Assembly (NCBI GenBank): GCA_963555815.3
Contig: CAUVWX020000001.1
Span: forward strand, 800,001 to 864,000
Direction of reading: 5' to 3'
DNA from: a bacterium
GTDB taxonomy: Bacteria; UBA8248; JACPRG01; G963555815
Length of the DNA: 64,000 nt
Positions 12,547-16,535 of this stretch are shown piece by piece. Positions within the stretch are counted from its first letter, which is position 1. Every line of letters starts with the position of its first letter. Made by a program: the position numbers and the translations under genes. A model generated the notes under the pieces. That model was not told the origin of the DNA, ran no database searches, and saw only the letters and a program-made list of their open reading frames with translations.

Positions 12547-13275
12547 TCAAGACCTCCGCTTTCCCCTTAGCCGAGGCGCGCTTTTCTCTCCGGGCAGGTT
12601 TTTTAAGGGATAGACGCATTCTTTCATAAGAGGGCATTCCCAACAGTGGGGTTTTCTCGCCTGGCAGATATATTTGCCGAACTTCCACATGTGGATGTGG
12701 GTGGAGTAGGCCTTTCCCGGCGGAAGGAGGGCGGCCATCTCAAAGTGGGCTTTTGCGGCCGAGCAATTTTCGGGGATGAGGCCGAGCCGCAGGCAAACCC
12801 GGTGGACGTGCGTGTCCACGGGAAACGCGTCCTTCTCGAAGGTGAACATCAGGACGACGCTCAGAGTTTTTGGGCCGATCCCTTTGAGGTGCCCAATAAC
12901 CTTCTGAGCCCCCTTCAGATCTAGATCTTTCAGGAAGTCGGCGGAAAGCTCCCCGTGGGTCTTTTTTAGCCAGCGCAAAAGATCCCGAATGCGGCGGCTT
13001 TTTTGCCCCGCCAGGCCCCCCGGTCGGATGGCTTTTTCGATGGCCCGGGGGGAGGCGCGCATAACGTCTTCCCAGCTGGAAAAACGCTCCCGTAGGCGCC
13101 CGTAGGCCAGGTCGCGGTTCGCGTCCGTCGTATTTTGGGAGAGCATGGTGAGGATGAGGGAGCTCAGGGGGTCTCGCCCGTCCGGCCGCCACCTGACCGG
13201 CCTAAAGAGCGAGGACAGGACAGAGATGACCCGCCGGGTCTTTCTCTTCAGTTCAGGACGGGTAGGGGTCGCCAT
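12547..13275 (-). CDS. nth: Endonuclease III-family HhH-GPD DNA glycosylase with 4Fe-4S motif
   Basis: LSQNTTD, KGIGPKT (HhH), FPVDTHVHR, C-x6-C-x2-C-x5-C. Confidence 0.9.
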   Translation of the reverse strand: MATPTRPELKRKTRRVISVLSSLFRPVRWRPDGRDPLSSLILTMLSQNTTDANRDLAYGRLRERFSSWEDVMRASPRAIEKAIRPGGLAGQKSRRIRDLLRWLKKTHGELSADFLKDLDLKGAQKVIGHLKGIGPKTLSVVLMFTFEKDAFPVDTHVHRVCLRLGLIPENCSAAKAHFEMAALLPPGKAYSTHIHMWKFGKYICQARKPHCWECPLMKECVYPLKNLPGEKSAPRLRGKRRS

Positions 13276-13336
13276 GGCGATTATATAGTTAACAAACCCA
13301 CTATTAGTTTAAAGCATTGAATGCATTTATAATTAC

Positions 13337-13486
13337 TCATTTCTTCTTACGCCCTTTCCCGCCCTTTTTCGGCTTGTTTGGTGGTGGCTTCGCCTTCAAG
13401 AGGTCGCTGACCACCTCCTCAAAGGGCAAGCCCTCAAAGGAAAGAGGCCCCTTATCCCCCCTTTTGGATCTTTTCGTCTGAGCCAT
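13337..13486 (-). CDS. 49-aa basic micro-protein (IS passenger)
   Basis: Hand translation MAQTKRSKRGDKGPLSFEGLPFEEVVSDLLKAKPPPNKPKKGGKGRKKK; GGGGGA SD-like upstream; below the ORF-track cutoff. Confidence 0.65.
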   Translation of the reverse strand: MAQTKRSKRGDKGPLSFEGLPFEEVVSDLLKAKPPPNKPKKGGKGRKKK

Positions 13487-13581
13487 CACACATCCCCCAA
13501 AAAAGCTATCAGTTTTTTCTTAACACAGGTTGATTAGACTACTAGTATTAGACTAGCCTTACAGTTCTGAAAGGGGGAACC

Positions 13582-14031
13582 ATGATTAGACTTTGGATAG
13601 GTGATGTGAAAGTTGAGTGCGACACCCCTGCGGAGGCCTCCGAAATTGTCCGGCTGGTGGGGTCTCAGAGGCAGAGGCGCTCTTCTCAGAGGTTTCCATC
13701 CGAACTTCTTCAGAATTTAGCAGCCGGGCTTTCATCTGCCCCTCCACATGGGCTTGAGGTTCCGTTTCTCCAGACAATCACAGCGTCTGGGAAAGGGGTC
13801 TCTTCGAAAGACCTCGCCTCAACGCTGGGAGTAAAAAAAACGACCGCTTTGGGCCCCATTTCCAGAGCCACAGAAAAGACGTTGAGGAGCATAGGGGAAG
13901 AGCCCCGGGATGTCTATGGGATTGACAGAGAAGGACAAGTCCCTTTATGGGTTCCTGGCCCTAGAGCAAAAGAGGCTTTGAGAAAGATGGAAGGATCTGA
14001 AGGAGATCAAATGCACAGACCCCAAAAGTAA
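13582..14031 (+). CDS. Hypothetical protein, possible C-terminal winged HTH (IS passenger)
   Basis: AAGGGGG SD; GVSSKDLASTLGVK..ALGPI helix-turn-helix-like pattern. Confidence 0.6.
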   Translation: MIRLWIGDVKVECDTPAEASEIVRLVGSQRQRRSSQRFPSELLQNLAAGLSSAPPHGLEVPFLQTITASGKGVSSKDLASTLGVKKTTALGPISRATEKTLRSIGEEPRDVYGIDREGQVPLWVPGPRAKEALRKMEGSEGDQMHRPQK

Positions 14032-14137
14032 AACAGCCCCCGCCAGCTGATACTGGCGAGGGCTATTATACAGGAGAACCCCGGAGGGCCTCTCCCTTAC
14101 ACATATTCACTTTAGGCCCTCTCGGTCCTCCTGTCAA
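14024..14137 (-). ncRNA. Candidate ~80-nt sRNA unit (promoter plus terminator)
   Basis: TTGACA(14137-14132)-N17-TAAAGT(14114-14109); hairpin 14035-14064 followed by GTTTTACTTTT on the minus strand. Confidence 0.4.
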
Positions 14138-14216
14138 GGAGGCAATCGTGAGGGCCTTTCTGTTTATGTGGCCCGGACCCATCCGTGCACCAACCCTTTC
14201 CTAAAAACGGGTCGGT

Positions 14217-14305
14217 GCGCCAGTGGTGGAATCGGTAGACACGGCGGGTCTGGGACCCGCCATTTAGCGAGGATATGTTGGTTCGAATCCGGCCTAGCGC
14301 TCCCA
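14217..14305 (+). tRNA. Atypical tRNA-like element: Leu-type body, TGG (Pro) anticodon, possibly pseudo
   Basis: Acceptor GCGCCAG/CTAGCGC (1 mismatch), D-arm GTG-GAATCGGTAGA-CAC, anticodon stem GCGGG/CCCGC with loop TC-TGG-GA, 16-nt variable region, T-arm GTTGG-TTCGAAT-CCGGC, 3' TCCCA. Confidence 0.7.
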
Positions 14306-14352
14306 CTCTATTTTTTCACTGGTCTTTTAGATAGTCAAATACATCAAGAGAG

Positions 14353-15279
14353 GTGGATGTTATGGAAACCGACATCACCAAATTGGCCGAGTATTTCTCG
14401 GATGAGAAAAAGGCCATTGAGCTAATCGAAAGGCTCCGCTGGCCTGGGGGCCCTGTCTGCCCCCATTGTGAGTCGAAAAAAGCCTATCGGCTTCGAGTAA
14501 AGAGCTTAAGGCGGAAACTGTGGAAATGTGCCAAGTGCCGAAAACAGTTTTCGGTGATGGTGGGAACCATCTTTGAGGATTCCCATATACCCCTTAAAAA
14601 GTGGCTGGTGGCAATCTATCTTATGTGTTCCTCGAAGAAGGGCATTAGTGCTAATCAGCTTCATCGGAGCCTCAAGCTAACTTACAAATCTACCTGGTTC
14701 ATGTGCCATCGAATCAGATATGCCATGAGTCAGCCACTACTAGCAGACAAACTCAAAGGAATCATAGAGGCCGATGAGACCTACATTGGCGGAAAAGCGA
14801 GGGGGACGGTCGGACGAGGGGCAGACAAAAAGGTTCCGGTCCTGGCCCTAATTGAACGTGGCGGTAGGGCAAGGTCTTTTCTATTGCCTAATGTGGGCGG
14901 GGGGACAATCCGTTCCTTAATCAAAGGTCATGTAGAAATCGAGGCGGAGATTATGACAGACCAGTTTCCCTCCTACAAAGGGCTAGGCAAGCATTTTGCG
15001 GGCCACCATGTTGTTGAACACGGAAAGCAATATGTCCGAGGCATTGTGCACACCAACTTCGCTGAGAGCTATTTTAGCCTCCTCAAGCGGGGCATTATGG
15101 GCACCTTTCACCATGTCAGCGAAAAGCATCTGCCTTTCTACCTGGCCGAGTTTGACTTTAGGTGGAATGAGCGAGAACTTTTAGATGGAGACAGAACCGC
15201 AGAGGCCATCAAATGTATCGAGGGAAAAAGGTTGACCTATAAACAGCCAAGGAAAAGACAAAACAGGAAATCTTGGTAG
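14353..15279 (+). CDS. IS1595-family (ISXO2-like) DDE transposase
   Basis: Zn ribbon CPHC..CAKC; EADETYIGG; IMTD; HTNFAESYFSLLKRGIMGTFHHVSEKHL..YLAEFDFRWN. Confidence 0.95.
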   Translation: MDVMETDITKLAEYFSDEKKAIELIERLRWPGGPVCPHCESKKAYRLRVKSLRRKLWKCAKCRKQFSVMVGTIFEDSHIPLKKWLVAIYLMCSSKKGISANQLHRSLKLTYKSTWFMCHRIRYAMSQPLLADKLKGIIEADETYIGGKARGTVGRGADKKVPVLALIERGGRARSFLLPNVGGGTIRSLIKGHVEIEAEIMTDQFPSYKGLGKHFAGHHVVEHGKQYVRGIVHTNFAESYFSLLKRGIMGTFHHVSEKHLPFYLAEFDFRWNERELLDGDRTAEAIKCIEGKRLTYKQPRKRQNRKSW

Positions 15280-15314
15280 TGGGTCGTTTTGAGAGGTTCT
15301 AAGGACCAGGTGGG

Positions 15315-15350
15315 GCTTGCGAAATGTCAATTAATTGACATTTCGCAAGC
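15315..15350. repeat. Perfect 36-bp spacerless palindrome
   Basis: GCTTGCGAAATGTCAATT|AATTGACATTTCGCAAGC. Confidence 0.95.
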
Positions 15351-15359
15351 TGGATGGGG

Positions 15360-15610
15360 TTATTTGAGGGACAGAAGGTGTTTTTTGGCGCAGTTTAAGT
15401 CAATTTAGAGATAGTTGATCATCTGTTTAATATGACCAATCTCAATTTCCGGATTTTCACTATTTCGTGGTCCCATTGGGAAACTCCGATATATTTTTCC
15501 ACCATAGCTTATCCAAATTCTATGCTCCTTTACCTGTCAGGTGTGTTCTGGCGCACATTCCTTTAGCATTTTTTGATTTTTCTTATACGAGCCGTGCCCC
15601 TGGTAGTCAC
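15360..15610 (-). pseudogene. HicA-like toxin pseudogene (1 frameshift, 2 internal stops)
   Basis: Reconstruction: MTTRGTARIRKIKK/MLKECAPEHT*QVKEHRIWISYGGKIYRSFPMGPRNSENPEIEIGHIKQMINYL*IDLNCAKKHLLSLK; begins 3 nt after the upstream gene's stop. Confidence 0.55.
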
Positions 15611-15613
15611 GGC

Positions 15614-16090
15614 TCAAGCAGCTAATGCTTTCTCTAGGTCTAAGATGTTGTTTTTTGCCGCCAGCTTTCCGACCCTTCTAATTTCAGGATAAGCAGATAA
15701 TTCAGCCTTCCGTCTAATCATTCCTTCGACCTGAATATCGCCGCTTCTAACCCTCTCGACAGCCTTCCACCATTTCTTGTCTGCATCCTTGGAGGTTTCC
15801 CCAACAAACCTGTGGACCTCTCTTTTAAAAGCGGAAAAATCTGCTGAACCCGCTGAAATATCAAACAAAACGGCTTTGAACGTTTGGAGGATTTGAAGAT
15901 AAGCCTCTCCCTCGTTCTTACCACTACCAGCGATGTCTCCTGGCTGAACGCCATACATCCAAACGTCTTCTTTTCCTTCCTGCACGGCAAGAACTCGCCC
16001 GCGAATATATACATCAACTAAAAACCCATTTCCTTCCACTTTTTCTCTAAAAGTCAAGAATAGTGGCAAATGGCCTCTGGCTGCAGCCAT
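15614..16090 (-). CDS. Hypothetical protein, HicB-like antitoxin candidate
   Basis: AGGAGG SD; VWMYGVQPGDIAGSGKNEGEAY resembles the HicB N-terminal P-G-x3-G-x3-E-A motif. Confidence 0.55.
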   Translation of the reverse strand: MAAARGHLPLFLTFREKVEGNGFLVDVYIRGRVLAVQEGKEDVWMYGVQPGDIAGSGKNEGEAYLQILQTFKAVLFDISAGSADFSAFKREVHRFVGETSKDADKKWWKAVERVRSGDIQVEGMIRRKAELSAYPEIRRVGKLAAKNNILDLEKALAA

Positions 16091-16136
16091 ACGCTACCTC
16101 CTTTTGGGTATTCTCGAATTTCCCAGAATAGCAATG

Positions 16137-16165
16137 AGTATATCTCTACCAACTATGGCTGTCAA
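16137..16165 (-). promoter_or_regulatory. Sigma70 promoter for the HicB-like gene
   Basis: TTGACA-N17-TATACT. Confidence 0.7.
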
Positions 16166-16223
16166 TGGTGCTTTTGTGGAGGGAATTTCATGGGGGCATG
16201 GCGGATTTCCTCCAAGTGGGGTC

Positions 16224-16322
16224 TTGACAAACCAACCCCTTTTCCGTAAATTCCCCTACGGTGAAGGAAATCTCTTAGTCTTTTGTGGCCGGAAACCGCT
16301 GGCGGGCGGTTCCGGCCTTTTT
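16224..16322 (+). ncRNA. Candidate ~65-nt sRNA unit (promoter plus intrinsic terminator)
   Basis: TTGACA(16224)-N17-TAAATT(16247); hairpin GGCCGGAAACCGC/GCGGTTCCGGCC 16287-16317 then T5. Confidence 0.45.
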
Positions 16323-16535
16323 GCTATTAGGGCCGGATCCTCTGCTTCCTTCTACAACTCCTCGTTCACCAAATAAAATATAGCCTAGAATGGTGCGCCC
16401 GTCAATGGTTGTCCTTTTGGGTTTGTGAAAGGGATAATCGCCGTCGCCATAGGCGAAAATGTCACAAAAGTAAGGGTTTAGGCCCATATTGTGTGTTTCT
16501 CCACAGGGTTTTCCACAAGATGTGGAAATAACCCC

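Follow-up and report, generated by a model that had tools for sequence, protein, structure and literature searches.

The element and its insertion site

The window, the whole 64,000-nucleotide stretch that was analysed (positions 800,001 to 864,000 of contig CAUVWX020000001.1, from a bacterium of the GTDB lineage UBA8248), contains at 13276..16442 an insertion sequence (IS) of the IS1595 family with passengers on both sides of its transposase, one of which is a tRNA gene that combines a tRNA-Leu body with the Pro anticodon UGG. The element is 3,167 bp long and has a GC content of 48%, compared to 60% genome-wide. Its terminal inverted repeats (TIRs; left at 13276..13299, plus strand; right at 16419..16442, minus strand) are identical at 19 of 24 positions and are bordered by two copies of the 8-bp target-site duplication (TSD) GTCGCCAT, at 13268..13275 and 16443..16450. 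The left copy holds the start codon of a minus-strand nth-like gene, and the insertion point is exactly this start codon. An empty site with one 8-mer and abutting flanks was found in a genome of the same genus (G001), and this is therefore a true insertion. The intact transposase (14353..15279, plus strand, 308 aa), a DDE enzyme with a zinc ribbon and intact motifs, takes up 29% of the element and matches NF033547 (215 bits, cut-off 75), PF12762 and PF12760, all above cut-off. The complete IS1595 transporter element proposed in a preliminary description of the locus is thereby borne out, also by the empty-site check suggested there; the suggested search for further copies returned a single copy in the element's own genome.

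Both ends start with GGCGATTAT and fit GGnnATTAT, the end consensus of the ISNwi subgroup. The family assignment rests on a lone DDE_Tnp_IS1595 transposase, an N-terminal zinc finger, TIRs starting with GG, the 8-bp TSD and the empty site. The DDE_Tnp_IS1595 domain with zinc ribbon, the GG-ended TIRs and the 8-bp TSD are shared with the transporter IS (tIS) of this family in the available text of PMC8101967, where monophyly of ISNwi was not recovered, and tIS with ISNwi-like ends have varied passengers on either side, as does this element. The transposon itself is ordinary, and its protein cargo is not conserved (see below).

A family of Leu-bodied tRNAs inside IS1595 and IS1 elements

The window tRNA gene (14217..14303, plus strand) was called by ARAGORN, which labels it tRNA-Pro(UGG), and scored 40 bits with Rfam. 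It is a type II tRNA with 7/5 geometry, a Leu-type D loop and a long variable arm, and its own genome also has an ordinary tRNA-Pro(UGG). A second Leu-bodied UGG tRNA of the same genome lies in a complete 1,968-bp IS1-family element with an 8-bp TSD (G000:C1:980285-982252, locus L048); this copy has an intact ACCA end, U15 and C33, and is overlapped by an upstream ORF. The closest relatives of the window transposase, at L130 and L132, carry a UGG tRNA too, and the one at L057 carries a GUC version.

A first search pattern, in which C33 was required, returned from 51 genomes only the two own-genome copies plus phage tRNAs without transposases. A GTDB scan with a pattern combining a Leu-type D arm, the UGG anticodon and a long arm gave at least 116 loci, distributed, according to the record titles, over Acidobacteriota, Planctomycetota, Alphaproteobacteria, Gemmatimonadota, Verrucomicrobiota, Actinomycetota, Chloroflexota and others. 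Among the 80 listed UGG loci with flanks, 58 had an IS1595 (56) or IS1 (2) transposase within 3.5 kb, and in 50 the transposase lay within 1.5 kb, compared to none of 17 canonical tRNA-Leu genes from five of the same genomes. The tRNA was inside the element in all 22 loci where both ends were found; 36 of the 58 gave no ends, and two TIR calls of 14/25 were taken as chance. The carrier transposases have a median identity of 43% and interleave with tRNA-free ones in a midpoint-rooted FastTree tree, without a clade test.

When the anticodon was left more open in samples of three phyla, positive non-seed genomes numbered 3/50 (with only C or G at position 36 allowed), 7/220 and 2/160, a frequency of about 1-6% of the sampled genomes, and the loci had the anticodons UGC (6), UGG (5), GUC (1) and UUA (1). 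Beyond UGG, the family has UGC, GUC, UUA and CUA versions. On viral contigs, a transposase accompanied 6 of 116 loci, their anticodons being UGC, CUA, GUC, UGU, AGG and UUA.

Several irregular genes were noted along the way. Recent movement is suggested by genome G133, where a UGC Leu-bodied tRNA is present twice in identical form (L421 and L423). Further irregular tRNAs stand in tandem with the Leu-bodied gene, upstream of it at L292, L314, L418 and L324 and downstream at L269, and a long-arm UGA tRNA with U73 lies upstream of the transposase at L050 (-301). Short RNAs resembling the tRNA-like domain of tmRNA are found about +1017 from the transposase start at L076 and L077 and upstream of the tRNA at L304, L298 and L391. 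The phage tRNA-Leu genes at L014, L016-L018 and L022-L029, on viral contigs, have C33 instead of U33.

Fold and identity of the tRNA

The stems of the family covary. Of the 19 stem positions scored in the 114 distinct genes among the matches listed, 18 are paired in 96-100% of cases and show many types of compensatory change; the search pattern itself kept the other one, 13:22, unpaired. Pairing in the acceptor, anticodon and T stems is at 96-100%, compared to 42-86% after shuffling (variable positions, kinship uncorrected), and the 7-bp acceptor and 5-bp T stems of the 7/5 geometry, also seen in the window tRNA, pair at 97-100% in the 114 genes. As for identity, A15:U48 is present in 116/116 and A73 in 111/116 matches listed, both positions having been left free by the pattern; G18G19 and A20a were fixed by it and provide no independent test of Leu identity. 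In Escherichia coli, Leu identity depends on A73, A15:U48, G18G19 and A20a and not on the anticodon, and Pro identity needs G72 and G15:C48 (available text of PMC9976931). The Leu determinants A15:U48 and A73 are thus kept and the Pro determinants mostly absent; most simply, the tRNAs would be charged with Leu whatever the anticodon, and hence act in missense or nonsense suppression. GUC members mostly keep A73. The tRNA mimic of the preliminary description gives way here to an RNA that is better read, from its sequence, as a functional Leu-bodied tRNA.

A body derived from tRNA-Leu could instead have been remoulded into a second tRNA-Pro, now charged by ProRS and serving as a back-up Pro decoder. 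A73, G35 and G36 are also Pro determinants, C1:G72 occurs in 11/116 matches listed, and one of five hosts tested has an archaeal-type ProRS, whose listed determinants do not include G72. In the same matches, however, G15:C48 is found in 0/116, A15:U48 taking its place throughout, and G1:C72 in 95; the other four hosts, that of the window included, have a bacterial-type ProRS; the UGC members do not show G3:U70 (0/7); and a harmless tRNA would not need the predicted antisense brake described below. We consider this explanation highly improbable.

The RNA might also not decode at all. It would then be either neutral cargo or a structured mimic, serving as a processing signal, as a decoy for enzymes that target tRNAs or in the antisense control of the transposase. 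In keeping with this, tRNA and transposase are convergent in 29 of the 58 listed loci, most of the genes are without an encoded CCA, some allo-tRNAs are inactive in translation (available text of PMC5389517) and the window copy is decayed. All four geometries occur, however, the remaining loci having the tRNA downstream (16), divergent (11) or upstream (2), and the conserved synthetase determinants and covarying anticodon stem would be needless for a pure processing signal. This makes a non-decoding RNA quite unlikely.

Signals around the tRNA gene

In the window, a Shine-Dalgarno sequence (SD; 14136-14142) and an 18-codon Pro-containing leader ORF (14148-14204) precede the tRNA gene on the plus strand (14136..14204). 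The leader ends in ...RAPTLS, resembling the ...RAPP... leaders of L361, L376 and L319, and a plus-strand hairpin (14187..14220) overlaps both the leader end and the 5′ flank of the tRNA. Past the tRNA, a predicted minus-strand promoter with an extended -10 (14310..14338) would start an antisense transcript at the tRNA 3′ end. A second Pro-rich mini-ORF, a strong SD followed by Met-Pro-Pro-stop (16199-16188; whole feature 16188..16213, minus strand), precedes a toxin-antitoxin (TA)-like operon and is the sole match of its kind in the 64-kb window (0.02 expected). These two mini-ORFs and the antisense promoter aimed at the tRNA are additions to the cargo first described.

Each mini-ORF lies back-to-back with one of two ORF-less promoter-terminator units. 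Unit A (14030..14137, minus strand) runs from a sigma70-type promoter (14137-14109), whose -35 overlaps the leader SD on the opposite strand, to a strong hairpin (14032..14067) that would act as minus-strand terminator and is likely bidirectional. Unit B (16224..16323, plus strand) consists of a promoter (16224-16252), a hairpin and a U-run, back-to-back with the Met-Pro-Pro mini-ORF. Rfam returned no family for either unit, and because of this arrangement both are best read as antisense RNAs to the leader regions.

The same kinds of signal are positioned around the family as a whole. A sigma70-type antisense promoter with its -10 ending 0-29 nt past N73 was found in 34/109 loci, compared to 1-9 in the other 30-nt bins and to 2/65 canonical tRNAs at the same position. 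Antisense terminators upstream of the tRNA were present in 69/109 loci, against 24-38 in shuffled sequences. The 80 nt upstream of the tRNA fold strongly (z < -2 in 70/112, compared to 2/65 controls), and a plain hairpin count separates family from controls weakly (71/112 and 31/65); upstream RNA complementary to the anticodon loop was not enriched. SD-led ORFs with Pro-Pro precede 26/112 genes (shuffled mean 5.4, maximum 11), and of 15 Pro-Pro-stop mini-ORFs 13 lie on the strand of the tRNA in the 220 nt before the gene, where 0.25 would be expected. The leaders use all four Pro codons (CCG 35, CCT 19, CCA 18, CCC 15).

These leaders bring two further explanations into play. According to the first, the Pro-Pro leader senses slow Pro decoding, as after loss of EF-P or tRNA-Pro, for example following attack by a tRNase toxin or a phage, and switches on a Leu-charged UGG tRNA that relieves the stall, trading accuracy for survival. 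The upstream placement of the Pro-Pro-stop mini-ORFs and their use of every Pro codon fit this, RAPP-type leaders are present and RAPP motifs stall ribosomes (available text of PMC10951233), and RNase-type toxins are frequent cargo. On the other hand, MPPP also precedes GUC tRNAs (L182, L426), a transposase (L054) and other ORFs, a tRNA with a UGC, GUC or stop anticodon would be of no help at a Pro stall, and the sense terminator needed for attenuation is not supported. Stall relief as the purpose of the cassette is therefore unlikely in our estimate.

According to the second, the SD, Met-Pro-Pro-stop and hairpin would form a CreT-like RNA toxin tying up tRNA-Pro, with the UGG tRNA as its antidote. 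The strong SD, the mini-ORF with two consecutive target codons and the hairpin reproduce the anatomy of the tRNA-sequestering CreT mini-ORFs, an extra tRNA helps to relieve CreT toxicity (available text of PMC8501985), and the window element holds the Met-Pro-Pro mini-ORF and the UGG tRNA together. CreT mini-ORFs, however, use the codons of one rare tRNA, and here all four Pro codons occur; GUC tRNAs also follow MPPP; and the positioned antisense promoter starts at the end of the tRNA, not of the mini-ORF. We regard a CreT-like toxin as very unlikely.

SD-led M(K)PPP-stop mini-ORFs with a hairpin were also seen at L054, L425, L426 and L429-L431, before an IS1595 transposase, an irregular phage tRNA(GUC) and other prophage ORFs, one of which shows by eye a P-loop-like motif. 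The M(K)PPP mini-ORF is a general mini-ORF leader.

A proposed mistranslation cassette

What we observed is the element, a covarying tRNA family with Leu determinants inside IS1595 and IS1 ends, and a positional enrichment of signals around it; for this family we infer charging, decoding, toxicity and antisense transcription as follows. The recurring passenger of these elements would be a Leu-bodied tRNA gene with a Pro anticodon, which the host LeuRS would likely charge with Leu. The charged UGG tRNA would misread Pro codons, put the wrong amino acid into proteins and thus act as a likely RNA toxin, silenced by a predicted cis-antisense RNA that starts at the tRNA 3′ end. The Pro-Pro mini-ORF would tie the output to ribosomes stalling at Pro codons; the pay-off may be addiction or abortive defence, as for other TA- and defence-type cargo of these elements. 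In the window strain, the tRNA cassette and the neighbouring HicA-like gene have been decaying since the insertion. We give this proposal, a toxic mistranslating tRNA silenced in cis by antisense RNA with a stall-dependent Pro-Pro input, about an even chance of being right. There is a precedent in Ser-bodied allo-tRNAs with Leu anticodons, which mistranslate and kill E. coli (available text of PMC5389517). The broader generalization, that IS1595 and IS1 transposons spread across many bacterial phyla a new kind of all-RNA TA or abortive-defence cassette made of a Leu-charged tRNA with a swappable anticodon (UGG, UGC, GUC, UUA, CUA), an antisense antitoxin and a Pro-Pro stall link, is more tentative, and somewhat more apt to fail than to hold.

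A number of observations weigh against the proposed cassette. As regards the tRNA, CCA is encoded in only 33/116 matches listed, C33 occurs in 16/114 listed genes, U73 and C33 mark the copy in the window, U15:U48 and C33 that in the IS1 element, and transposon-linked UAU allo-tRNAs were inactive in translation (Mukai, available text of PMC5389517). As regards the linkage, only 6 of 13 non-seed loci of the phylum samples show a transposase in their 1.5-kb flanks, and the listed loci are interrelated, so that the counts overstate independence. As regards the signals, promoters and terminators are consensus matches only, the positioned antisense promoter is missing in 75/109 loci, and Pro-Pro leaders occur in just 26/112. 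The upstream hairpin has a U-tail in 3/71 cases and is not an intrinsic sense terminator, and sense terminators are found in 34/110 loci compared to 16/48 controls, leaving classical attenuation by such a terminator unsupported. The idea of a leader codon tracking the anticodon found no support either, L182 being a GUC tRNA with an MPPP leader.

Alleles of the window copy

The window tRNA carries several lesions, namely U73, C33, an acceptor mismatch and wobbles in the variable arm. Contigs X7 and X11, from two other studies, share the insertion; their tRNA has A73, Watson-Crick pairing in the variable stem and an improved T stem. None of the three breaks in the HicA-like gene is present in X7, and neither of the two whose sites X11 covers is present there; X11 has lost most of its transposase. 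The better tRNA and unbroken HicA-like gene of these contigs indicate, at the level of sequence, that the window copy is an allele in decay, derived from a cassette that was once intact. The comparison covers the tRNA, the HicA-like gene, the palindrome and the transposase, with 12 further differences between the strains outside it. Assembly errors were rejected as a source of the lesions, the window allele being matched by runs X1 and X2 of two studies, one of which may be the source sample. That the HicA-like frame and the tRNA discriminator were lost, with the 158-aa gene described below still open, may be the trace of a host escaping two toxins.

The remaining cargo and a possible HicAB-like pair

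All the individual cargo items first described, a micro-ORF, a helix-turn-helix (HTH)-like ORF, the tRNA gene, a palindrome and two promoter-terminator units, are present. The HTH-like ORF (13582..14031, plus strand, 149 aa) is specific to this element; it gave weak HTH matches below cut-off, and its likeness to DUF6416 is a lead only. The palindrome (15315..15350), between convergent genes, is perfect over 36 bp in the window, as claimed, but imperfect in X7 and deleted in X11.

The basic micro-ORF (13337..13489, minus strand, 49/50 aa) belongs to a family recurring in related IS1595 elements and matches a hidden Markov model (HMM) built from the tRNA loci (E 8e-6). It or its sister family was found in 46/80 tRNA loci (partly by construction), 0/17 controls and 14/110 transposase loci, the window's own included; a third micro-ORF HMM (mC) was discarded, its cluster being contaminated by frames overlapping the tRNA. 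The two families, exemplified by L303:3740-3916 and L352:1117-1281, are mutually exclusive, basic, 50-60 aa long, without a Pfam match and recurrent in IS1595 elements; possibly they are transposition regulators. The neighbouring nth-like glycosylase gene (12547-13275, minus strand) was cut off from its native upstream region at the start codon, and an outward-facing micro-ORF transcript may now drive it.

On the minus strand, a sigma70-type promoter (16137..16165, 11/12 consensus match) precedes a two-gene operon formed by a 158-aa protein gene with a HicB-like lead (15614..16090), the conserved upstream partner of a HicA-like ORF, and a HicA-like pseudogene (15405..15610) with a frameshift near 15568 and stops at 15539-15537 and 15407-15405. 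Of the HicB-like/HicA-like pair first proposed, the operon stands; its HicA-like ORF is broken at three places, and no Pfam HicA or HicB match was obtained. The 158-aa protein is one of a large, unnamed protein family comprising 825 clusters, whose partner of about 85 aa has invariant His residues and was called in 18 of 20 loci, the exceptions being the window, where it is broken, and L451, where none was called; two partners look truncated. No Pfam or NCBIfam HicA or HicB model matched the members scanned (0/114 and 0 of 11/14), neither protein was clearly matched in fold and PDB searches, and the HicA-like fragment, searched as a single sequence, had no matches. The 158-aa model (pLDDT 92) matches HicB weakly (6g1c, Z 5.3, rmsd 4.1, 75 aligned, rank 24), below T-fold matches at Z 6.7, and its similarity of 0.76-0.78 to Atlas HicB clusters is a lead only.

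The own genome contains a second, intact pair (G000:C1:703748-704176, L453) that could cross-react with that of the element. This paralogous pair was predicted to bind, scoring 0.82 against 0.02 for the best control, with runs agreeing in at least 85% of contacts and a partner pLDDT of at least 80; the mark is reached by 116/157 solved and 2/215 mismatched pairs, and the prediction may possibly reflect likeness to solved complexes. The window genes resemble the type II HicAB TA systems in their conserved two-gene operon and ~85-aa His-bearing partner, to which the weak fold match to HicB and the complex predicted for the paralogous pair may be added; they differ in having no Pfam or NCBIfam match, a 158-aa protein that forms a family of its own, a broken toxin-like gene and no tie to IS1595. 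A HicAB-like pair with its toxin-like gene broken in the window is, on these models, plausible. Another intact pair lies in the same nth/ABC intergenic region of a same-family genome (L435, G003:C7:798259-798717), with no IS1595 or IS1 transposase nearby.

The cargo as a whole is not one module. Homologous transposases were collected at 110 loci (80 metagenome, 30 own-phylum), among which 19 distinct complete elements of 1.7-5.1 kb were recognized; those inspected hold unrelated passengers. The 149-aa ORF and the 158-aa family occurred in none of the 80 tRNA loci and 110 transposase loci besides the window's own, and only one of 20 loci of the 158-aa family, again the window's, has an IS1595 or IS1 transposase within 1.5 kb. 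The Leu-bodied tRNA was present in 4 of the 19 complete elements, window included (three by pattern, L057 by ARAGORN). We therefore rejected a single conserved module: the preliminary description had envisaged toxin-antitoxin, small RNAs and tRNA moving as one unit. The tRNA recurs across distant elements together with the regulatory signals on its flanks, and so does the micro-ORF, unlike the rest of the protein cargo, so that the addiction or defence reading survives for the tRNA cassette and not for the whole cargo. Near the tRNAs, 12/99 other cargo proteins match PADLOC, and several of 90 match Pfam models of NYN, PIN, MazF, Panacea or IrrE/RmrA (both without a control set, and covering part of 146 candidate ORFs); such TA- and defence-type co-cargo fits an addiction or abortive-defence setting. 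Three further IS1595 transposase genes of the own genome (G000:C1, at about 1074058, 1147122 and 1352833; two with ends and TSD, one transposase frameshifted) adjoin ORFs that by eye resemble DNA methylases or restriction genes.

Relation to known systems and significance

In the literature searched, we found no title or abstract on this tRNA family and no mismatched-anticodon tRNAs as passengers; the supplement of Mukai 2017 on 7/5 irregular tRNAs may hold examples. Deliberate mistranslation by Streptomyces tRNA-ProA and ProRSx, in which a Pro-identity body reportedly reads other codons with a dedicated synthetase, likewise involves natural tRNAs whose identity and anticodon disagree; here the Leu body would read Pro codons, the gene is IS-borne, and there is no synthetase among the scanned cargo. 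The predicted cis-antisense RNA would be a trait in common with type I antisense TA systems.

A close comparison is with the allo-tRNAs (available texts of PMC5389517 and the review PMC7609411), with which the family shares a long variable arm, a synthetase blind to the anticodon, varied non-cognate anticodons including GUC and stops and, in the former source, TA genes and transposon proteins as neighbours. Allo-tRNAs have 8/4 or 9/3 geometry, Ser identity (G73/U73) and a Sec-like D arm; the present family is canonical 7/5 with A73 (111/116 listed), A15:U48 and a Leu-type D loop, is dominated by UGG and UGC and maps inside IS1595 and IS1 ends, and an antisense promoter with a Pro-Pro mini-ORF is not described in the available text of PMC5389517. 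With CreTA (available text of PMC8501985) it would share an all-RNA addiction-type design and a strong SD, mini-ORF and hairpin. It differs in its proposed toxin, a mischarged tRNA, in its carrier, an IS and not CRISPR-Cas, and in its codons, Pro-Pro and not rare Arg or Ile ones. The present analysis contributes counts over the whole family set against controls, a predicted antisense arrangement, the leaders with Pro-Pro, and alleles in both an intact and a decayed state.

If the proposed cassette is real, the tRNA itself would join the toxins of TA and defence systems, and there would be a testable function behind the association of irregular tRNAs with transposons and TA genes, which was raised for allo-tRNAs and is unexplained. 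Genome and recoding surveys would mis-annotate such genes as suppressors or as extra tRNA-Pro, tRNA-Ala or tRNA-Asp genes, and the genes would offer natural missense and nonsense suppressor scaffolds supplied with their own control RNAs. Mobile DNA would then be exploiting the blindness of LeuRS to the anticodon, carrying portable corruptors of the genetic code.

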